Position numbers and translations under genes: made by a program. Below, piece by piece: positions 6,313 to 36,960 of a stretch of DNA of 41,644 nt (its first letter is position 1; each line of letters starts with the position of its first letter). Source of the stretch: a virus (lineage: Duplodnaviria > Heunggongvirae > Uroviricota > Caudoviricetes); the IMG/VR virus record IMGVR_UViG_2617271072_000007. One strand, given 5' to 3'. The notes beneath the pieces are model-generated. The model searched no databases, had not been told where the DNA came from, and worked only from the letters and a program-made list of their open reading frames with translations.

Positions 6313-6552
6313 TTACTGCTTGTTTGCTTCTAACGCTTCAGCTATTCGGCGAAGATACTCATTGTTTTTAAATGAAACCATGATGCACTCAAAGAATATT
6401 CGGCAAAATACAGCACATAACAAAAGCACTAAAGCGCCAGCAGCCTTCCCATTAACAAACGTTATAATGGCGGCAACAACCAGAAGTAACATTGTGATGC
6501 CATACAGAACGTTGATGATTTTTGGAGTTATTAATTTATCAAATCCGAACAT
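6313..6552 (-). CDS. small inner-membrane protein (moron)
   Basis: 79 aa, two hydrophobic helices, RBS AGGAA, followed by its own terminator. Confidence 0.6.
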   Translation of the reverse strand: MFGFDKLITPKIINVLYGITMLLLVVAAIITFVNGKAAGALVLLLCAVFCRIFFECIMVSFKNNEYLRRIAEALEANKQ

Positions 6553-6605
6553 GCGACAAATTCCTTATCGTGAAAGTAGAAGTATCACATTATAATTACG
6601 AGTGA

Positions 6606-6947
6606 TTAATCAACAATCTTTTTGCATGGAAAGGAACCGATGATTTTCGGCGCATCCATGCTGTTCTGCAGCAGTTGGACATTCAGGAATCGCGTTTCGG
6701 TACCAGGGCGACGAATGTATTCAAAGCCGTAGTTGTTACCGTCTTTGGCAGGCATAAGCCCCATGTCTACTTTCAAACCATTGGTACCCAGTTCGGTGAT
6801 TTTTTGAGAGGTAACTTTTTCACCGTTGATTGTCGATAACTCGCCCTGGTTTGCAACCATAGTGTAGCCACCGCATTTAACCGTGAAGCCATCCGCCCAC
6901 GCACTGCACGCAGAAAAGACAGCTAACAGAAAAATAATACCCCTCAT
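6606..6947 (-). CDS. secreted protein or lipoprotein (moron)
   Basis: 113 aa; signal peptide MRGIIFLLAVFSAC with possible lipobox Cys; RBS AGGGGA. Confidence 0.6.
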   Translation of the reverse strand: MRGIIFLLAVFSACSAWADGFTVKCGGYTMVANQGELSTINGEKVTSQKITELGTNGLKVDMGLMPAKDGNNYGFEYIRRPGTETRFLNVQLLQNSMDAPKIIGSFPCKKIVD

Positions 6948-8904: not shown

Positions 8905-10891
8905 TAACCCACCCTCACCTGATTACTTCGCATGACCTGAGCATTTGCAGACTGTTGCCGACGTGCAACCTCATTACCGACAGCGTGCGGATCTCCGCCA
9001 CCGTAAATGTGGTAAGTATTTTGCTGATTAACCTCTGTCATTTTGCCACTAATTCCCGCCACGGCAGCCTTATTAATCAGCTCTCGGGAATAGATATTTC
9101 TTCCATTTTCATGCTGGATAATGCTGCTCATCAATGCTGACATGGTTTGCGGCTCGCTCATATTCAGGGCAGCCCGGGGATCCACTCCCAGTCGTTGCGA
9201 TACAGCCCTGATATACGCAGTTGTGTTGTTATTATCAGACGCAGGTGCCCAGGTAGAGATAATTTTCTCCACACTGTTTATTCCCCGTCCGGCGTACAGC
9301 ATTAACTGACGAGCAAGAGCCCGTAATCCATCAAAAGCAGTTTCAAATCTGGCAAATCGCCCGCCCGGGCGTTCAAGAGAAGCCCCTGCCTGACCAGCAA
9401 AATTAAGGTTTCCCGGATTGTTATTCCGTTCTCCTCGTTTCGTAGCCTGTGCATATTGTTCCGGCTCATCATCACCAAACCAGCCGCGTACCGTCCGGCC
9501 CACGCTGCGGGGATCGAATCCCCAGTGCTCTTTAATCCAGTCGGCAGTACTGTTAGCGCTGTCTGTAACTATCGGCATCGCTGACGGATTTTCGCTGCCC
9601 TGATTAAGTATCTGTTTGCCGATGCTGACGGCATCAACCCAGCGGCCATCTTTGATAGCGTTGAGCAGGTCGGCGATCATGTTCAGCATTTTGCTGAATT
9701 CGCCCATCTGGTCGATGAAGTTGCTGAAATCCCACTTCAGGGACCATGATTTGGGGTCAATATTGAGCAGTTTCGCCAGCGCTTTCACCAGGTCGTTAAC
9801 GGTCGTTTTAAGGTCACGAACCATCTTCAGCGCGGCATCAACCTCCGGTTTCCACTTGCCCCAGTCAATCAGGCTGTCGCCGCCTTCCTTCCAGGTCTGA
9901 TAGTCCTCCCACAGGAGGGCAATCCCCGCCGCCAGCGCGGTAATGAGGCCAATCGGCGACATCCAGAACGTACTGTTCAGAATGCGCAGCGCAATCGTCA
10001 GTGCGCCAAACAGCGAGATCAACTCCCGCGTTTGCTTATCCAGCGATTGCCACCAGGTGATGAGGCTTGATGTTCCTTCAATCAGTCTGAAGAACAGCCG
10101 CCCGATAATATCCCCGAGCGCCAGAATGCCTTTTATGGCTTTCGTCAGGGTCTGCTCGATACGCGGGAAGTTGTCCAGGATATGGCGGCGCAGGGTGTCC
10201 AGCGAACCCGCAAGCCCACCCGCAAGATTAGAGCCGATTTTGTCACGGGCCATGCCTGCCATCGCGCTAAACTCACGCAGGGAGGTCATAAATTTGTTGG
10301 AGCTTCTGGCCGCCTCTTCAGCATTGAAGCCGATAGCTTTCGCCATTGCGCTGTACTGCCCGGAGAAACCACCCACACCCCGGCGCATCGCCATAAGGGT
10401 ATTTTCGTCAATGCCCAGCATCTGCGCATACTGGTTAGCCCGGTAATACGGCATGCCGCTGAGCTTCTGGCCTACACCTGTAAAAATAGCGGCCATGTCA
10501 CGCATGTTACCGCTGGCATCCCGTGTCTGTACCCCCAGGCGATTCAGAAATCCCTCTGCACCGGGATTGTTACGAATAAACCGGGAGAGGCTTTCCAGAG
10601 AAGATCGCGCAGCGTCCACGCTGCCGCCAACCCGCGAAACCGCATATCCAATAGACTGAATTCCCTGGACTGTCGCGCCAGTGCGCTGTGACGCCCAGTA
10701 AAGATTATCCAGGCCGGAGGCAATCTTAGCCGTAAAGGCCACCACGGACAGTGCAGCTCCTTCAACGGCCAGTCCCATTTTGATGACATTTGCAGTTGTA
10801 CCGGCGAGGACAGAACCGAATTTTTTGCTCCAGCATCATCCACACTGAAGCCAAGCGAGACGAGGAAATCTTTAATAGTTTCAGCGTTCAT
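8904..10891 (-). CDS. tail tape measure protein; frame broken by a 1-nt indel
   Basis: Start MNAETIKDF at 10891 with RBS GGAGAGAGG; frame switches at the A6 run (plus T6 about 10821-10826) into the 624-aa ORF 8904..10778; an A7 restores one frame. Confidence 0.8.
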
Positions 10892-11522
10892 TATCCTCTC
10901 TCCATTTCTCAATGCGCCGCTGGTTATCCGCTTTTACCGCCAGATGGTCATTCAAGAGAGCAATATCGTACAAATCGACAGAGCCATCTTTAAGTGCTGT
11001 ATAAGGAATTAACCCGGCGTCAACCGGATTGAGAAGGTAGGACAGCCCGTCCGGCAGGCTGTTAAACGTCAGCCCTGTTGCAGGCTCTGCGTCGTGCTGG
11101 TAAGGGATGTAGGCAAAAAAATTTCCCAGCGAATTGGCGACCACCCGCGCCACCAGCTGCAGCATGACCAGCAAGTCAATATCATCAAACATCAGTTCGC
11201 CCTGGGTAAATACCGGCACCCATCCGTCCATATGACGCCGCGATACCACCGCAAGACAGGGATGAATAATCGCATCGGTGTCATCTTCGGTCAGGGAAGA
11301 CAATTCCTCAGCGATACGCGGGAGCATGGTTTCAAACACCGGTTTTAACTGCTCGAATTTCACGGTGTCGATTTTGCCGTCAGCAGGCAAACGGGAGCGA
11401 ATGCTCCCGAAATCTGACATCATTCCTGCCAGCACCGGCAGAAGTTTGCGGGTCACTTTCAGCTGGTCAAAAACGCTGAGTTTTGCCGCGCGATATTTCA
11501 CGCCTTTGATTTCGAATTCCAT
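10881..11522 (-). CDS. tail assembly protein (possible chaperone)
   Basis: 213 aa between tube and tape measure genes. Confidence 0.45.
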   Translation of the reverse strand: MEFEIKGVKYRAAKLSVFDQLKVTRKLLPVLAGMMSDFGSIRSRLPADGKIDTVKFEQLKPVFETMLPRIAEELSSLTEDDTDAIIHPCLAVVSRRHMDGWVPVFTQGELMFDDIDLLVMLQLVARVVANSLGNFFAYIPYQHDAEPATGLTFNSLPDGLSYLLNPVDAGLIPYTALKDGSVDLYDIALLNDHLAVKADNQRRIEKWREDNER

Positions 11523-24980: not shown

Positions 24981-25154
24981 CCTGTACCAACCTGTACCCA
25001 CCTGTACCAGCTCTTTTCAAACCTTTTCCCCAAGCGACTTATATATATATATGGGGTTCTTAGTAATTAGGTTGGTACAGATGGTACAGTTGGTACTGGC
25101 CTTTAAATTCAATTAGTTAAAATGTACCAACCTCTATTTTGAGGTTGGTACAGG
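24981..25154. repeat. iteron-type replication origin candidate
   Basis: Three tandem 10-bp repeats CCTGTACC(A/C)(A/C/G), a (TA)n tract near 25040-25052, then at least four more copies of the TGTACCAAC core in both orientations. Confidence 0.6.
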
Positions 25155-27327
25155 TTGGGACACCGCCTCAAAAATTCGAGTCATTTTCCCCCCAATTCGC
25201 CTTTGGGCACGCTTATACCCGCAATTTTGCAAAACATTACTAATTCGCATTTCTTCGCGTTTTCCGATGCGGTCAGGATTTAGCCCAATCGCATCACGCA
25301 AAACATCACTTGCGCGTAAAAATTCGCAATTTCGCGGAAGTTCATTAGTCATCAGGTCTGGCGTGTCGAGCCATTTCTCTACCGTTTCAAGCCAAGCATC
25401 CTTGATGGTGTACTGTTCATGGACACTCGCTGCCAGTTGTTCAGCCTCACGGAACTGGATACCCCCCAGACGCTGAAACACCTCACGAGCCTCAGCCCAA
25501 AGTAAAAGGAGATCTCTTTTTATCGCTTTCACGTCGACTTTCGACACTTCCACGGGGAGCCAGCGACGGTTACCAGTCTTGTCCGCAAGGAATTCGTCCT
25601 CATTGGTGGTACCAACGAACACCAGGCGACGAGGAAACTGGGTGGCGAACTCCCGGTATTTCGGGATCCAGTTTTCGTGAGTACGCGTCACAAACGCTTT
25701 GATTGACTCCAGCTCTTTGGTATTAAGTCCGCGCAGTTCACCAATCTCTGCCACCAGCCGACCACGCATTTTTTCGAGCGAGATCATCGTCTTTTTCGGC
25801 AAAAGAGATTTCAGTAAAAAACGCAGGATCAGGGCTCAGTGCCTCCACTCCGGAAGACTTACCGCAGCCCTGCGGACCAACGAGGATCGGCACCATATCC
25901 GCTTTGATGCCTGGCTCCAGTACTCGCCCCGCCAACGCGGTCCACATGAACATAGACACCGCACGGGTATAAGGCGTGTCGGCGGTACCGAAGTGCGTAT
26001 GGTAGAAACATTCGATGCGCGGCACGCCATCCCACTCCAGTCCGTTCAGCCAGGTGATCGCTGAATCGAATGGTTGTTCATCGGCTGCAAGTAACACCAC
26101 ATCGCGAATAAGTTCACGACCAACAGGTTTAAATCCCCGCTTTTCCATCGTGATGCGCAGGCGCGCATAATCCGCATCGGTGAATGCCCGCCATTGTCCG
26201 GATCCTGCAGGGGCAAACATGATTTCGTCGCGGAACTGGTCAAAGCGAATATCGATGTCCACAAAATCAGGGCGTACTACTGCTTTGGCTGCGTTGCTGA
26301 TGGTTGCCTCGATACGCCCCCATTTATCACGCTCGAAAGCAGGCAGCGGTAAAGGTTCCGCCACTTCGATGCTGGTCAGATCTTCGAAATCGTCGTTGCG
26401 GATCCCGATGGCATTCAGGAAATCTCCGTCATCACGATGCGCGCAACTGGCATGCAGGCATTTAAAATGCCCCTGCTCAAAGCCTGCGGTTCCCGCAGGA
26501 AAATAAACTGTGCTTGTTGGATCGCCTCCGCTACTGTGGCCGTCTTCAAACGGACAGCGGATATATCGTTCACCGTTTGCGCCATCCAGCAGCGTCCAGC
26601 CATTGGCATCAAGATATTCAGCTGTATCATCCGTCGCGCCGGGCGTGAATGCTGAACGGTCGCGCATCTTCGTGTTGCCCGCTTCGGTGGTTACCGACAC
26701 AGGGAGTTGTTCAGCCAGGCGCTGCCACAGCGTTTCAAGCTGCTCACCTGTAATAGCCGGAGGTTCATCCGGCAAACCACCGTCCCATTCAATACGCGCG
26801 CCGCTGCTGTGCGTACCACAGGCAACGAACTGCTGCCCGTTCGCCAGCAACTCGATAATGCCCATATCCCCCGCCAGGCGATGGATACGCTTACGGAAAT
26901 CACCATCAACGGCCAGCAGATACAGACACTTATTACTGTTTGCTCGCCAGCGTCGCGGCGGCGACTCACCCAGAAGTTGCACAAGTGTTTTGCGAATATC
27001 TGCCTGAATGTCTTCATCTTCGCTATCGCAGTCCAGCGCCAGCCAGCCATGGCCTGTACGCACGCAGATGCCATAATCCGGTTCATTCGACCAGCGGGCA
27101 AAATCATGCTCAGTAACAACATGCCCGGTCCATTGAGCAATACCGGTGACCTGGCGGTCCCGGTTATAGCGACTCGGCGTCTTACCCAACGCTTTCAATT
27201 TACTATCAGGGGATATGGTCGCACTGGGGTTACATACAACTGGGAGAAGATGAGCAGTCCGCCCCAATACCAGGTCGAAATGAAACCACTCATCAGGCGT
27301 AGCGCCCCATGGTTTGCTATCGGACAT
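25134..27327 (-). CDS. replication primase-helicase (prim-pol N-terminus, VirE/D5-type NTPase C-terminus); frame broken by a 1-nt indel
   Basis: Walker A GPQGCGKSS, Walker B-like VFVGTTNEDE; ORFs 25738..27327 and 25134..25802 join at plus T5 about 25792-25796. Confidence 0.85.
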
Positions 27328-27330
27328 GGG

Positions 27331-27531
27331 TTACACCTTTTGTCTAGCTGTCACTTCCTGAAAAAGTTTTTCTATCGCACGTACTGTAGAAAAGCGAGGG
27401 TCAGAATGAACCCCGGTAAGAAGCCGACTAATAGAAGACTGCTTCACGCCTGCAATTTCGGCAATTTGGTTTTGGGTATACCCTGAATCAATCAAGCTTT
27501 TGACCATCTCTTGTGGTGTTAGTCCGGACAT
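27331..27531 (-). CDS. cro: Cro-like HTH regulator
   Basis: 66 aa HTH (QNQIAEIAGVKQSSISRL), divergent from the repressor, RBS GGAGA. Confidence 0.75.
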   Translation of the reverse strand: MSGLTPQEMVKSLIDSGYTQNQIAEIAGVKQSSISRLLTGVHSDPRFSTVRAIEKLFQEVTARQKV

Positions 27532-27672
27532 ATTTAAGTCTCCACTTTCGTCTATAGCGCAAATTTATACGAAAACGGATTACTCAGCAATACAGCAATT
27601 CTATGTCATCCTAGATTAAAATATCCGATAACGCATAATCACCGTCCCTGTATACAACATGGATGAATCCAA
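27532..27672. promoter_or_regulatory. OR-type operator region with divergent pR/pRM promoters (not resolved)
   Basis: Intergenic between cro and cI; contains GATAACGCATAATCACCG and TATAGCGCAAATTTATACG, related to motifs at the pL promoter. Confidence 0.5.
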
Positions 27673-28348
27673 ATGATTGATACTACCGATATCCTTTCTC
27701 AAAACATCAAGTACCTGATGGACAAAGCCAAGATAAGCTCGATAACTGAGCTGGCACGTCGGTTACAGCTGAACCAACCAACGCTACACAGGCTGGTATC
27801 AGGAGAGGTGAAAGATCCGAAATACGCAACGTTAAAGCAGATCGCCAACTACTTCCACGTGTCACCAATAGACTTGGCAGAAAGGAGCCTTCAAGAAATG
27901 GAGAAAGAGGACGCGACAGGTATAAAAAACGTATATTTCTCTTAGGTTTAATAAAGTACCTGTTTTGGGAAACACTCAGCTAGGCGTTGGAGGACTTTGG
28001 AGCGACACCCAATATTCAGTAGGTAGCAGTGATGGTTTCATATACTGGCCGACAAAGGATGAAGATGCATACGCCCTGAAATGTGTTGGTGATTCAATGA
28101 TGCCTAGAATCAAAGAGGGGGAGTTCGTAATCGTCGAACCCAACCACGACTACACTCCTGGTGATGAAGTACTTGTGGTTACCCGGGACGGTGAGGTCAT
28201 GGTGAAAACCTTCTTGTTCGAACGCGATGGCCTGTTCCATCTAATGTCTGTAAATGAAGATCATCCACCAGTCAGAGTACCACGCGAAAACATTGAAAAA
28301 ATCCATTACGTGGCGGGGATCGCCAAATCCGCGCTACGTATGTACTAA
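27673..28348 (+). CDS. cI: CI-type repressor (HTH plus S24 LexA-like peptidase); frame broken by a 1-nt indel
   Basis: HTH in 27673..27945, GDSMMP peptidase motif in 27965..28348; frames join at the A6 run about 27924-27929. Confidence 0.85.
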
Positions 28349-28378
28349 CCTTTACAGTCTGATAACTTACTTCTGATC

Positions 28379-28408
28379 AAACCGCTCTCCACAAGGGCGG
28401 TTTTCTTA
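28379..28408 (+). terminator. rho-independent terminator after cI
   Basis: Stem AACCGC(TCT) / (GGG)GCGGTT of about 9 bp followed by TTTTCTTATTT. Confidence 0.7.
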
Positions 28409-28432
28409 TTTGCAAAATAATTCATTTTCGTA

Positions 28433-28483
28433 TTGACACAAAATCCCATAACGCATATAAATACGATATCGCATAATTAATGC
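28433..28483 (+). promoter_or_regulatory. pL-like early-left promoter with overlapping OL-type operators
   Basis: TTGACA (28433-28438), 16-17 nt spacer, TATAAAT; operator-like AACGCATATAAATACG and palindrome CGCATAATTAATGCG overlap it. Confidence 0.65.
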
Positions 28484-28497
28484 GTTTTTTTAATACT

Positions 28498-28509
28498 GGC
28501 TCTTTAACA
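28498..28509 (+). promoter_or_regulatory. boxA-like element (nut-type antitermination signal)
   Basis: GCTCTTTAACAA about 30 nt downstream of the predicted pL start; matches the rrn / lambdoid boxA core; no boxB hairpin identified. Confidence 0.45.
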
Positions 28510-28659
28510 AACTGAACCGCGTGACAGGTAAGCCGCAGTACTCCTGGCAAAACGAAATAGCACCCGATGGGATCGAGGTAAGCGCCGAGTCCGTATGCGT
28601 ACGGTAAGCGTAGAGGACAACACCGCGACAAACTGATAAGTCACGCAAGTTGAAACGCC

Positions 28660-28683
28660 CCGACGATGGGGCGCTTAGTTCCT
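28660..28683 (-). terminator. putative terminator of the 174-aa minus-strand gene
   Basis: Hairpin CGCCCC-GACGAT-GGGGCG; on the minus strand followed by UUUC. Confidence 0.45.
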
Positions 28684-28767
28684 TTTGGGGTGGGGTGAAG
28701 ATCAGTCCATTGAGTCAATCCGAAGTTCAGCATCTACCACTACACCACCACCAAAGAGAACTGCTAA

Positions 28768-29292
28768 TCATCTGGCAGGTTGTAACGGTGCAGGAATTTT
28801 GCCACTGACTTCTATATTTCGGGGAAATTTATATTCAGCGGAGCATTTATGACACTTGAGAATTTTATAAGCGGCATTAGAAGTATGGTATTGAAGTATA
28901 GACTTCATACCCGACTCATAGCATGTAGTACAAAGATAATGAGGCTTGAACTCAGGATCGTCAGTAGGCTTCAGTACATAGACCACCGTATTGGTAATCG
29001 GGTGGTACATTTCATAGTTCATTTTCTCACTATCCCAATCCTGTTTCTTTTCAAGAAGGGATTCGAGTTCAACAATGCGCTGTTTAGCTTCGTTCAAAAG
29101 CTCCGTTAGTGCGAATTGTCCAGTACGCGCATCAATTAGTTTATCAAGTAGATCGATAGTTTTACTTTTAACATTGTAATCCACCTGCAACGCATTAACT
29201 TCTTTTGCTAAATCAACAGCACCTTTCAAAGCACCACCAGCACTAGTGGCCGCCTCAGTTATACGCCGTACAAGTCCTTTTTCTTCAGACAT
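28768..29292 (-). CDS. coiled-coil protein with C-terminal C4 zinc ribbon; immunity-region cargo
   Basis: 174 aa; CTTC-x22-CHKC; transcribed towards the pL promoter, antisense to the early-left operon. Confidence 0.55.
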   Translation of the reverse strand: MSEEKGLVRRITEAATSAGGALKGAVDLAKEVNALQVDYNVKSKTIDLLDKLIDARTGQFALTELLNEAKQRIVELESLLEKKQDWDSEKMNYEMYHPITNTVVYVLKPTDDPEFKPHYLCTTCYESGMKSILQYHTSNAAYKILKCHKCSAEYKFPRNIEVSGKIPAPLQPAR

Positions 29293-29420
29293 CTTAATTC
29301 TCTCTAAAACTATAGGGGTAAAGAGATATTAGCCGAATTCTCGCTGTAGGGGTACAGAGAGAGCCATCTCGTCTGACGTGGTTAAAACTGACATCCATGT
29401 AATTGCTGTGTGTAGCCTTT

Positions 29421-29446
29421 GCCCGCCTCAAGTGACGGGCTTTTTT
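29421..29446 (+). terminator. putative plus-strand terminator (tL-like) before the early-left genes
   Basis: Stem GCCCG / CGGGC with 10-nt loop followed by T6. Confidence 0.4.
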
Positions 29447-29505
29447 ATGTCTGAAAGCGCACTCGCAACAGCGCGCTCCCCGATATGAAAAAAGGAATAC
29501 AACCG

Positions 29506-33860: not shown

Positions 33861-35924
33861 ATGTCCAATATACTATGGGGCGACCTGGAAACCTATTGTG
33901 ACATTCCGATCAACAACGGTACCCATGCGTATGCCGAAGGCGTTGAAGTGATGCTTTTCGCATGGGCTATCAACGACGGGCCAGTAAACGTGTGGGATAT
34001 CACTGCCGGTGGTGGTATTCCACACGGCTTATACGAAGCAATCGCAGACCCTGAAACCCTGCTTTATTTCCATAACTCTCACTTCGACCGCACCGTTCTG
34101 CGTTATGCAATGCCGCGACTGGCACCGCCAGTCGAACGTTGGCGCGACACGATGGTGCAGGCGCTGGCGCACGGTCTCCCGGGGTCTCTGGGGGAACTCT
34201 GCGAAGTACTAGGCGTCCCGCAAGACAAAGCGAAGGACAAAGAAGGTAAAGCGCTGATCCAGCTGTTCTGTAAGCCACGCCCGAAAAACAGCAAACTGCG
34301 TCGGGCCACCAGTAAAACCCACCCGGAAGAATGGCGGCGCTTTGTTGCTTACGCCGGACTGGATATCGAGGCAATGCGCGAAGTCTATAAACGTCTGCCG
34401 AAGTGGAATTATCAGGGGACAGAACTGGCGCTCTGGCATCGTGATCAGCAGATCAATGACCGGGGCGTCTGCATGGACATGCAACTCGCACGCGCTGCGA
34501 TCGAAGCGGTAGACCAGGAACAAAAGCGCCTGGCAAAGCGTACACAGGAAATGACTGATGGCGAAGTGCAGGCAGCCACACAACGAGACACGTTGATTAA
34601 GCACATTGTTGAATCCTACGGTGTGGAGCTACCAGACATGCAACGCAGTACTCTGGAACGTCGTATTGCCGACCCCGATTTACCATCTGCCGTGAAAGAA
34701 CTGCTGGCTATCCGACTGCAGGCCAGTACTACCAGCACCAGTAAATACAAGGCACTGATGAAAGGCGTAAGCCACGACGGGCGCTTACGCGGTACGCTAC
34801 AGTTCTGCGGGGCGTCACGTACCGGTCGTTGGGCCGGACGGCTATTCCAGCCCCAGAATCTTCCCCGCCCTTCACTAAAACAGGAACAAATAGACGAAGG
34901 CATCGAAGCACTGAAAGCCGGATGTGCAGACCTGCTGTTTGACAATATCATGGAACTAACCAGTTCAGCGTTACGTGGCTGCATTATCGCGCCAACAGGC
35001 AAAAAACTGGTGGTAAGTGACTTGTCGAACATTGAAGGCCGTATGCTGGCATGGCTGGCAGGAGAAGAATGGAAACTGAATGCATTCAGAGAGTACGACG
35101 CCGGAACGGGTTCGGACTTATATAAACTGGCGTATGCAAAAGCTTTCGATATTGCACCAGATGATGTTGATAAACACATGCGTCAGATCGGTAAAGTCAT
35201 GGAGCTCGGTCTGGGTTATGGTGGTGGTGTATCGGCTTTCATCACTTTTGCGCTGGTTTACGGTCTCGATCTCGACGAGCTGGCGAACGCCGCACTGCCA
35301 AACATTCCCCGCGATGTTATCCGCGAGGCGAAAAGCTGGTACGACGAATCGGTTAAACGCAAGTCAACCTACGGGCTTTCTGAACGGGTATTTATCGCCT
35401 GCGACTCACTTAAACGTCTCTGGCGCAGGGCGCACCCGGCGACCTGCGATTTCTGGTACGAACTGGAGCGCACCGTCCGCACAGCAATCGCCACACCGCA
35501 AAAAACATTGTATTGCGGCTATCTTAAAATCCGACGTGATGGCGCGTGGCTGCGCATACAGCTACCATCCGGACGCGCTGTATGCTACCCGTCTCCGGTT
35601 ATCGAAAAAGGGAATATCACCTACATGGGTGTTAACTCTTATTCGCGTAAATGGCAACGACTCAAAACCTACGGCGGAAAGCTGGTGGAGAACGTCACCC
35701 AGGCAGCCGCCCGCGACGTTCTGGCCGGAAACATGCCGCTTATCGAAGATGCCGGTTACAGCATTGTGTTGACGGTACACGACGAGGTGATCACCGAAGC
35801 ACCTGACACAGAAGATTTCAACGATAAAGCGCTTTCCGCGCTTCTCTCCACTAACCCCGAATGGGCACCCGATATTCCGCTGAATGCTGGCGGCTTTGAG
35901 GCGTACCACTACCGTAAGGAGTAA
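33861..35924 (+). CDS. family-A DNA polymerase with 3'-5' exonuclease domain
   Basis: 687 aa; DLETY exonuclease motif, [11 protein letters not shown] (motif A), [12 protein letters not shown] (motif B), VHDEV (motif C). Confidence 0.9.
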
Positions 35925-35931
35925 TACAAAG

Positions 35932-36960
35932 TCACTTAAAATCCCTAGATAACATCTGCGAAGCAGCTGATGCTGTATAAACTCCAGTATGTTTTATTTC
36001 TGCAGCTATTTTGTAGCCATCCTCCTTAAACTGCGTAAGCATTGAGCTTAAGGAACCAAGTTTTTTAGTATTCAACACCATTCTAACGACAGTTCCTTCA
36101 TGATAATGACCTAACTCTATATGCTTCTTTCCGTGTTCATCTAGATATATTGCATGGTCACCGCTACAAATAAGAAAACTACCGCCAAGTTTACATATAC
36201 GGCTGATCATATAAAGGCCAAATCCCGAATTATGCCAAGGATTTCTTGTATTGATTCTCGCCCCCTTAAAATTTTTACTAGAAATAGATGGCATTAACGC
36301 TAACTGAATGGCTTCAGAATCATTATCAGCTTCTATATAAGGGTTCTTCGATAGAGATTTTTTCATTCCTATACCATTATCAGAAATTGTTATTTCAACA
36401 CGGTCATAAGAAGGCCAATACTGTGCACAATATTCAATCACCTTTGAATCACTATGTTCCACAACATTACGCATAATTTCCCTAATAGAAAATGTCAAAG
36501 CATCAATGAGGTCGCCTTCTTCTTGGCGAGCAAGAATCTTTGCTAATTTACCAGATCGTTCCTCAACTATCTCTTGCACCTCAGTATATTTATCGTTAGC
36601 TTCATCTATAACTGTTTGAACACGAAGAATTGTAAATGGAACAAAATTATTATTTCCATCTGTACATCCCGGTTCACGGCCATGCTTTAACCCGAAGGCT
36701 CGAAAGAATGCCATATTTGCGGCATAATCCTTATTCTCATGCCCGCTACAAAAAAGTTTAAAACCATCAATGTTCTTTTTCTGTTTTCGATGGAAGTCTC
36801 GAATATGCTTAGCAACATAAACCATTGTAAATGGTTCAATCCTTCCCATATGCGAAAAATCGATTGTTATTTGCTGTTGACCTGAATGTTTTTCAATTTC
36901 ATTGCAAAAATTAAATATCTTTTCAGGATTACATGAAGAGGGAAATAAGATTCGTGACAT
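35932..36960 (-). CDS. GHKL-type (histidine-kinase-like) ATPase with unknown N-terminal domain; cargo gene
   Basis: 342 aa; N-box NVVEHSDS, G1 DNGIGM, G2 GFGLYM; AT-rich; opposite strand to the operon. Confidence 0.65.
   Translation of the reverse strand: MSRILFPSSCNPEKIFNFCNEIEKHSGQQQITIDFSHMGRIEPFTMVYVAKHIRDFHRKQKKNIDGFKLFCSGHENKDYAANMAFFRAFGLKHGREPGCTDGNNNFVPFTILRVQTVIDEANDKYTEVQEIVEERSGKLAKILARQEEGDLIDALTFSIREIMRNVVEHSDSKVIEYCAQYWPSYDRVEITISDNGIGMKKSLSKNPYIEADNDSEAIQLALMPSISSKNFKGARINTRNPWHNSGFGLYMISRICKLGGSFLICSGDHAIYLDEHGKKHIELGHYHEGTVVRMVLNTKKLGSLSSMLTQFKEDGYKIAAEIKHTGVYTASAASQMLSRDFK

Follow-up and report, generated by a model that had tools for sequence, protein, structure and literature searches.

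The question raised by this locus is how the early operon of a temperate phage is transcribed across a long untranslated leader and a strong terminator when no N protein can be recognised in the phage. Processive antitermination in temperate phages has two textbook solutions, the N protein with nut RNA and the protein-free put RNA. The locus lies on the plus strand at positions 28433 to 28767 of a stretch of 41,644 nucleotides (nt) from a tailed phage (IMG/VR record IMGVR_UViG_2617271072_000007), the whole of which is called the window here. An earlier note described a boxA core and three GGTAAGC direct repeats in the leader of a predicted pL promoter, and suggested either an RNA-based antitermination element or a protein-binding array. 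In the present analysis, boxA was found to be followed by a conserved folded RNA domain, and the two together head the early replication operon. The leader is read as an N-independent, Nus-factor-dependent, nut-like antitermination leader with a probability of roughly 50%, and by analogy it would be the functional equivalent of the lambda pL 5' leader in a repressor-controlled early operon. An RNA-based antitermination element is thereby the best-supported part of what had been suggested, through its position, its analogy with known systems and the terminator found between promoter and early genes. The features of the leader and of the terminator region are as follows.

28433-28461, plus strand: predicted early pL-like promoter, with TTGACA at 28433-28438, a 17-nt spacer and TATAAA at 28456-28461
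28441-28475, plus strand: two operator-like 17-mers, AAATCCCATAACGCATA and AAATACGATATCGCATA, set 18 nt apart, which together overlap both the -10 and the start site
28470-28491, plus strand: small hairpin CGCATAATTAATGCG with a T-run at the 5' extremity of the transcript, an operator palindrome and terminator-like
28499-28510, plus strand: boxA GCTCTTTAACAA (RNA GCUCUUUAACAA), the rrn consensus and the sole exact copy of this 12-mer in the window
28519-28646, plus strand: conserved folded RNA domain of about 130 nt, beginning 8 nt after boxA
28519-28525 with 28640-28646, plus strand: P1, the closing long-range helix
28527-28529 with 28632-28634 and 28532-28536 with 28625-28629, plus strand: P2, which with P3 makes up two further stacked helices
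28538-28540 with 28621-28623 and 28542-28545 with 28614-28617, plus strand: P3
28543-28561, plus strand: near-invariant junction motif CCUGGCAAAACGAAAUAGC, whose CCU pairs with a conserved GAGGA at 28613-28617
28562-28579, plus strand: Pb hairpin of 7 bp, in which the A at 28576 is a conserved bulge
28582-28611, plus strand: Pc hairpin, variable and absent from the Yersinia type
28527-28533, 28577-28583 and 28603-28609, plus strand: GGTAAGC copies
28656-28673, plus strand: GC-rich hairpin P4, CGCCCC-GACGAU-GGGGCG, with a weak U-rich tail (whole 28656-28690)
29348-29450, plus strand: RprA-like small RNA (sRNA), with a strong intrinsic terminator at 29421-29446, between the leader and the early genes (29485 onward)

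The boxA core had been placed about 30 nt past the predicted pL start by the earlier note, and the exact 12-mer was found about 31 nt downstream of the expected promoter start. It fits the gamma-proteobacterial consensus GYTCTTTAANA (PMC5725501), and the remaining five boxA matches in the window have two mismatches each. Relatives were collected by a scan of viral contigs for boxA plus the downstream motif, which produced about 80 loci, and by a second scan for the downstream motif alone, which produced 76 real elements. In this second scan, where boxA was not required, a boxA fitting the consensus was present in 75 of the 76 elements. A scan of one genome per species for the junction motif gave 35 matches, of which 33 were due to chance and two were real; the real copies, from Trabulsiella and Pluralibacter, also keep boxA. 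The only boxA variants among the relatives were GTTCTTTAACAA and GCTCTTTAAAAA, both within the consensus. A tblastn search with DUF2800 for distant relatives was of no help, the family being too broad. The elements fell into four sequence types, namely an E. coli type, an L009 type, an L005 type (with a subtype) and a Yersinia type. The single element without boxA is of the Yersinia type (L133, about 10700-10900, minus strand); it has unrelated sequence in place of boxA and the P1 5' strand and appears to be a recombinant or decayed copy.

The folded domain was characterised with a covariance model (R1) whose seed consisted of 12 E. coli-type sequences only. R1 produced exactly one match per locus, the three non-seed types included, with scores of 32-35 bits on the Yersinia type and 93-115 bits on the others outside the seed. 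In the alignment fitted to R1, a procedure that flatters pairing, standard pairs were formed in 96.2% of the cells, compared to 20-38% when the 3' partners were slid by 1-3 columns. Changes on both sides were found in 24 of 38 pairs, and none of 500 shuffles reached the observed values. Compensatory pairs were present in P1 (five of seven) and in Pb (seven of seven). Compensatory changes are nonetheless visible in the raw sequences: P1 reads GCGUGAC/GUCACGC or GCAUGAC/GUCAUGC, and across the types Pb reads ACCCGAU/AUCG-A-GGU, GCCGCGA/UCGC-A-GGC, GCCGGUA/UACC-A-GGC and GGCCAAU/AUUG-A-GUC. Within the E. coli type, a C-G pair of Pb is replaced by U-A in locus L055. G-U pairs are abundant, for example in 42 of 44 sequences at one P2 pair, and the plus strand is therefore the RNA strand. 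The junction motif CCUGGCAAAACGAAAUAGC is the same or nearly so in the four types though the surrounding helices vary, and it changes to CAAAUUGAAAUGGC only in the subtype recovered through boxA alone. Outside its CCU, this motif is unpaired or forms a 2-bp mini-hairpin.

The support for the structure is comparative rather than energetic. The conserved fold differs from the minimum free energy by no more than 2 kcal/mol, and the folding energy of 28468-28700 as a single sequence was not unusual (z = +0.71). RNA folding had been proposed as a check in the earlier note, and the short hairpins mentioned there are real but are parts of one larger covarying fold. With plain MAFFT alignments, in which the sequence types were misaligned, RNAalifold yielded no more than P1 and a 4-bp helix, a problem that the single-type covariance model overcame. 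Overall, we regard it as very probable that the structured RNA domain is real. The covariance search against Rfam that had also been proposed was run, and the leader matched no family. No gathering-level match was found anywhere in the window with Rfam release 15, and at E values up to 10 the region 28433-28686 showed nothing but chance-level contacts at its edges (ncr1175 at 28379-28431, E 7; MIR3712 at 28687-28753, E 3.4). Three loci of the other three sequence types gave no match at E values up to 0.1. The combination of boxA and domain was not described in the literature searched.

In the consensus fold, boxA lies outside every helix with a mean predicted unpaired probability of 0.62-0.77, and it is predicted to be single-stranded. 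By eye, GCUCUUU of boxA could pair with AAAUAGC of the junction motif at six of seven positions, and both sides are invariant. The boxA itself is a textbook element; the novelty lies in the fixed link between it and a conserved multi-helix RNA where the phage has no N.

The position of the element is as constant as its fold. It heads the early replication operon in prophages of E. coli, Yersinia, Trabulsiella and Pluralibacter, always in the order of a co-oriented cI-like repressor, a promoter, boxA (about +12 to +50) and the domain. Upstream of the element the promoter/operator region is of at least five unrelated kinds; downstream come variable small genes, with the conserved early genes after them. 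The varied upstream regions together with the constant position indicate that the element is a mobile conserved early-leader module and not a part of the immunity region. In L016, L080, L127 and other loci, a long imperfect hairpin cassette (CAGTGAATTAATCAAAGGCTTCGGGCCTTTTACTAATCCACTG) is located between small accessory genes shortly 3' of the element, twice in L080; termination, RNA processing or weak promoter activity are possible roles for it.

The predicted promoter matched the consensus at 11 of 12 positions on direct reading. It was missing from the list of the promoter scanner because its -10 is without the final T, which the scanner requires at position 6. The identical -10 is retained in Yersinia phage YeP4, and in relatives whose upstream region is unrelated a sigma-70-like promoter likewise stands 18-50 nt before boxA. 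These sites are the predicted early promoters of the leader. A second occurrence of CGCATAAT was found at 27632, in the divergent repressor/cro promoter region, and the predicted leader promoter would be under repressor control. The CGCATAATTAATGCG hairpin at the start of the transcript is limited to the immunity type of the window and is not found in the other types. Its T-run (28485-28491) is T7 in the window and T6 in E. coli IAI1, and the stretch is 1 nt shorter than in the window in all 30 E. coli genomes listed with full query coverage.

The absence of an N-like gene asserted by the earlier note was upheld. When every open frame of the window was compared with four N sequences by phmmer, the best E value was 0.024, for an open frame inside the DNA polymerase gene. 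No antiterminator was found among the neighbouring genes with Pfam or PHROGs, none is named by PGAP in IAI1, and no Arg-rich motif was found in any plausible gene of the window. A lambda-type boxB (a stem of about 5 bp with a GNRA-like pentaloop) was not found just after boxA, where the P1 5' strand is located instead. The earlier note saw no convincing boxB hairpin. P4, which has a 6-nt loop and lies 145 nt from boxA, is a possible boxB-like candidate, or else it may act as a weak terminator. P4 is present in only two of the four types and has no compensatory changes. The tail after it is not conserved, with at least five unrelated forms, and P4 was not called by the terminator scanner.

Between the leader and the early genes lies the RprA-like RNA with its terminator. 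The match to Rfam RF00034 scored 46 bits in the window and 55 bits in the compact locus L056, both under the gathering score of 70. The RNA is chimeric: about 24 nt (ATTGCTGTGTGTAGCCTTTGCCC) and the terminator hairpin match the 3' half of K-12 rprA, and the 5' part is unrelated. Of 79 distinct loci, 51 have the RprA-like core downstream of the element, and in 36 of them it stands between the element and a conserved gene of 300 amino acids (aa). A terminator hairpin follows the core in the copies inspected (the window, L056, L016 and L127). In L056 the core is at +224 and the 300-aa gene at +425 from boxA, with a small open reading frame (ORF) between them and no space for another promoter before the 300-aa gene. 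No consensus promoter was seen between 29446 and 29485 in the window. The leader and the antisense stretch remain untranslated for about 1 kb, including RNA antisense to a 174-aa gene, and contain C-rich, G-poor tracts (GC skew of -0.37 to -0.59 at 29160-29280). A terminator scan of the operon gave numbers near the shuffle expectation and was uninformative; the RprA-like terminator was missed by it because of the loop-size limit. No description of this RprA-like RNA was found in the literature searched; by carrying a copy of the RprA seed, the phage might imitate the host sRNA or compete with it.

The same boxA was found at the head of other phage leaders. A scan for GCTCTTTAACAATCAG (boxA with four flanking bases) produced more than 120 phage loci (L138-L254), some of which are expected by chance. 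The identical boxA and flank head classical nut sites with a P22-like boxB 7 nt on and an Arg-rich N downstream (L236, L139 and L165). Another leader class, with the hairpin CACCGC-GAUGAU-GCGGUG and no obvious N, was found in L214, L225 and L183; its loop and the GACGAU loop of P4 are of one GAUGAU type. Further classes exist, for example CAAAGTCGGAACAGCACATGAAACC. In Serratia phage vB_SspM_BZS1 (L137, 3540-3680) and about 15 viral contigs (for example L166, L138 and L155), a second, unrelated folded domain was observed after the same boxA and 5' leader as in the L005 type. It has a 9-bp closing helix (GUCACCCAG:CUGGGUGAC) 9 nt after boxA and a z of -2.44. It had no Rfam match and no obvious N gene downstream, and the sequences of this set were too uniform for covariation.

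If the leader is an N-independent antitermination leader, host NusB/NusE would bind boxA and, together with NusG, NusA and SuhB, would form a Rho-resistant RNA polymerase complex of the kind known from rRNA operons, from CRISPR arrays and from the suhB leader. The folded domain would occupy the place of boxB-N in lambdoid phages, where it could strengthen or extend the modification, or else need the boxA tether in order to fold. The modified polymerase would then cross the untranslated RNA, pass the RprA-like terminator and reach the genes from 29485 onward. It is established that boxA alone is sufficient for rrn antitermination, with boxB and boxC optional, and that long non-coding RNAs are Rho targets (PMC6614797). 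In the suhB leader boxA is used likewise in a Nus-dependent manner (PMC5725501).

Several points weigh against the proposed antitermination. In the sources consulted, Nus/boxA complexes without N are credited only with blocking Rho-dependent termination, and the suppression of intrinsic terminators is described for lambda N (PMC5725501); readthrough of the RprA-like terminator would therefore need something extra. Constitutive antitermination would also be hard to reconcile with an RprA-like sRNA that is made by termination. The BZS1-type phages carry a different folded domain after the same boxA, and the domain of the window may therefore be exchangeable cargo and not a part of the antitermination signal. 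In addition, the -10 hexamer of the predicted promoter is without a usually conserved base, and the folding energy of the domain is unremarkable. As for the extra component, the domain might be an RNA surrogate for N-boxB, tethered by boxA-NusB/NusE beside the RNA exit channel, where it would contact the polymerase or NusA and let an rrn-type complex ignore intrinsic terminators; this extension is tentative and we consider it doubtful.

Compared with the nut sites of lambda, P22 and phage 21, the element is similarly located just past a repressor-controlled early promoter and ahead of terminators, with boxA first and a structured element 7-8 nt later (boxB at 7 nt, P1 at 8 nt). In contrast to these sites, each phage has only one site, the place of the 15-nt boxB hairpin is taken by a domain of about 130 nt with four to five helices, and the searches revealed neither an N homologue nor an Arg-rich protein. 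The rrn leader (boxB-boxA-boxC, with NusA/B/E/G, SuhB and S4) shares with it the identical boxA 12-mer, a long untranslated structured transcript and the 5' strand of a long-range helix soon after boxA, and in neither case would a phage protein be needed (PMC6614797, PMC5725501). In its sequence layout the phage leader likewise appears to place a boxA of the sufficient kind before a long structured untranslated RNA. Unlike the rrn leader, it would drive protein-coding phage genes and has an intrinsic terminator in the path, the passage of which was not found documented for N-less Nus complexes (PMC5725501). By reading, though with no dedicated search, neither a GU-rich boxC nor a conserved hairpin before boxA was seen here. 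Stand-alone boxA sites in the suhB 5' untranslated region (PMC5725501) and in CRISPR array leaders (PMC7665894) resemble the element in having boxA near the 5' end of an untranslated RNA and in depending on host Nus factors alone. No downstream fold is described for the suhB boxA, whereas a specific fold is coupled to boxA here.

The put RNAs of HK022 and HK639 act via the zinc-binding domain of the RNA polymerase beta' subunit, independently of Nus factors. They are likewise cis-acting folded RNAs right after pL in phages without N, and a put-type action would account for readthrough of an intrinsic terminator. The put RNA is about 70 nt long with two stem-loops, and boxA is unmentioned in its description (PMC9378689); the architecture of the window domain differs from this. 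R1 scored at most 5.8 bits on the HK022 immunity region and at most 10.1 bits on that of HK639. No boxA consensus match was found near pL or pR of HK022, and none was visible at HK639 putL. Membership in the put family was rejected on the low scores, the different architecture and the absence of boxA. An RfaH ops site was also rejected: GGCGGTAG in the YeP4 leader is a hairpin arm that varies to GGCGGCAGG or GGCGGACAGG, and the window leader is without it. The nearest case in the literature is that of the Nus-dependent non-lambdoid mEpimmI phages, where an N-like protein acts with ordinary nut sites; identity with them was rejected, as these are siphoviruses with the N-like Gp17 and boxA/boxB nut sites.

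Apart from antitermination, the domain could be a non-coding RNA with its own job, acting for example as a decoy or sponge for a protein, in regulation or as a signal for processing. In that case boxA would only shield an untranslated, slowly folding RNA from Rho and tether the P1 5' strand to the polymerase until the 3' strand emerges, with readthrough into the early genes as a by-product. Such tethering by boxA has been proposed for the leader-trailer helix of rRNA. The 8-nt distance between boxA and P1 and the closure of the domain by a long-range helix are consistent with this alternative, as are the BZS1-type phages, which swap in an unrelated domain with a like layout (boxA, 9 nt, 9-bp closing helix). 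The near-invariant 19-nt junction motif and the conserved bulged A resemble a specific binding surface, the Pb loop contains a GGA motif in three types, as does the conserved GAGGA, and Nus factors promote RNA folding (PMC5725501, PMC10250234). However, no partner or target was identified, the element is always at the operon head with one match per locus, and in a free-standing RNA one would look for a conserved 3' end, while P4 and its tail vary across the types; we hold this alternative to be unlikely. A nut-type site served by an unrecognised small phage protein, unrelated to known N and binding the domain or the GAYGAU loop of P4, is more unlikely still. Related collections do hold boxA leaders with a simple boxB and N genes, the GAUGAU-loop hairpin stands close after boxA in L214, L225 and L183, and in non-lambdoid coliphages divergent N-like proteins may be encoded away from pL, as in the precedent of mEp021 Gp17 (PMC11893012). 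Against such a protein stand the negative searches for N, for an Arg-rich motif in the window and for an antiterminator among the neighbours, the variation of the immediate downstream genes between phages, and the absence of P4 from two types without covariation in the others.

A riboswitch-like or attenuator leader, in which the junction would bind a small ligand or host factor and so select either termination at P4 or readthrough, is suggested by the multi-helix junction with its highly conserved unpaired nucleotides, the 5' leader location and the U-rich tail after P4 in the window. This is improbable, since the expression platform is not conserved (the tail forms and the two types without P4 noted above), no mutually exclusive pairing of the P1 3' strand with P4 is evident, there is no Rfam riboswitch match, and the genes downstream are phage replication and variable accessory genes and not a metabolic pathway. 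The GGTAAGC repeats had in turn been taken as a possible protein-binding array. All three copies are present, 2 nt off the positions estimated in the earlier note, and copies 2 and 3 extend to GGTAAGCG. GGTAAGC was counted eight times on both strands of the window (83 kb), compared to 3.85 expected, and from these counts three exact copies within 83 nt on one strand would be far beyond chance. In the fold, each copy spans the last bases of one helix (GG[U]), two unpaired A residues and the first bases of the helix that follows (GC). The equivalent positions in the other three types read GGCAAGC/GGCAATC/CCAACCC, GGCCAAC/GGCAGGT/GCTTACG and GGTAACC/AGTCAAC/GATCAGT; the repeats are thus confined to one type and do not represent a binding array, and of the arrangement that was to be sought in relatives boxA is conserved and GGTAAGC is not. 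The L049 element (6497-6621, minus strand) has a natural 26-nt deletion exactly between the GGTAAGCG repeats 2 and 3 that removes Pc; this implies a dispensable Pc and slippage promoted by the repeats. Perhaps the repeats are the trace of a duplication. A binding array is contradicted by these comparative data, and we give it hardly any credence. The same holds for a small Arg-rich peptide encoded in the stretch: an open frame across the domain reads LAKRNSTRWDRGKRRVRMR in part and has a GTG start in L021 and many other relatives, but the window has GTA in place of this GTG and no start codon, a 1-nt deletion shifts the frame in two other types, and substitutions track base-pairing rather than codons. 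This ORF was rejected.

The prophage setting was derived from the PGAP annotation of the IAI1 copy and from searches of the window with Pfam and PHROGs. The window is an E. coli prophage whose leader region is 99-100% identical to at least 30 complete E. coli genomes, including IAI1, ETEC H10407 and O103:H2 12009. The leader was found in 104 of 5,426 complete E. coli genomes (about 2%), each time in the chromosome. Its identity was 97.6% with Escherichia phage vB_EcoM-606R2 and about 72% with Yersinia phages YeP4-6. The genes around the leader are arranged as follows.

27331-27531, leftward arm: Cro-like helix-turn-helix (HTH) gene
Remainder of the leftward arm: VapE primase, Q-family antiterminator, lysis and structural genes
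27673-28348, rightward arm: cI-like repressor (HTH and S24 peptidase)
28379-28403, rightward arm: repressor terminator, followed by the boxA leader stretch
28768-29292, minus strand: gene of a 174-aa coiled-coil protein (phrog_1244), inserted between the leader and the RprA-like RNA
29485 onward, rightward: early genes for a 56-aa membrane protein, the 300-aa protein (phrog_6784), DUF2800, DUF2815 and DNA polymerase
Further rightward: TIR-domain protein, VRR-NUC, helicase and integrase

This layout bears out the assumption of the earlier note that the boxA leader is the head of the early replication operon, and the stretch is otherwise non-coding, as had been stated. The operon contains replication and recombination genes, and the host element is a temperate myovirus-type prophage. 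Yersinia phage YeP4 lacks the 174-aa gene, as do compact loci such as L056. The TIR-domain protein gene (about 35278-36039, plus strand; PGAP, IAI1) is a second inserted accessory gene of the early operon. Compared to IAI1, the window has 1-nt homopolymer insertions at 25769, 27924 and 28485. The first two split genes: the VapE primase is reduced to a 529-aa ORF, where IAI1 has a gene of 2,187 bp, and the cI-like repressor runs into a stop at 27943-27945. Over 25600-29500 the eight closest E. coli genomes are also 3 nt shorter or, in one case, of different length, and the three insertions are probably sequencing artefacts or slippage and not true pseudogenes. In addition, the 286-nt gap between the primase and Q genes contains several imperfect GGTACAG/TGGTAC copies at about 25080-25170, where the window and IAI1 differ by many indels; the copies could represent iterons or a replication origin.

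Overall, the element joins boxA, a handle for host factors, to a large conserved fold in phages without N. If the fold acts in antitermination, the leader would be a tractable genetic system for the reprogramming of a Nus-modified polymerase by RNA and would test how far the rrn-type complex can be pushed. If the fold is not involved, it would still be an uncatalogued structured phage RNA whose folding is maybe Nus-dependent. If the domain does replace N-boxB, a third, hybrid route of antitermination, with RNA and Nus factors and no phage protein, would stand beside N/nut and put, and the domain may be one of several of its kind, with the BZS1-type domain as another. Finally, the presence of an rrn-consensus boxA at the head of many phage leaders suggests a broader, so far unsurveyed use of the host Nus complex by phages.

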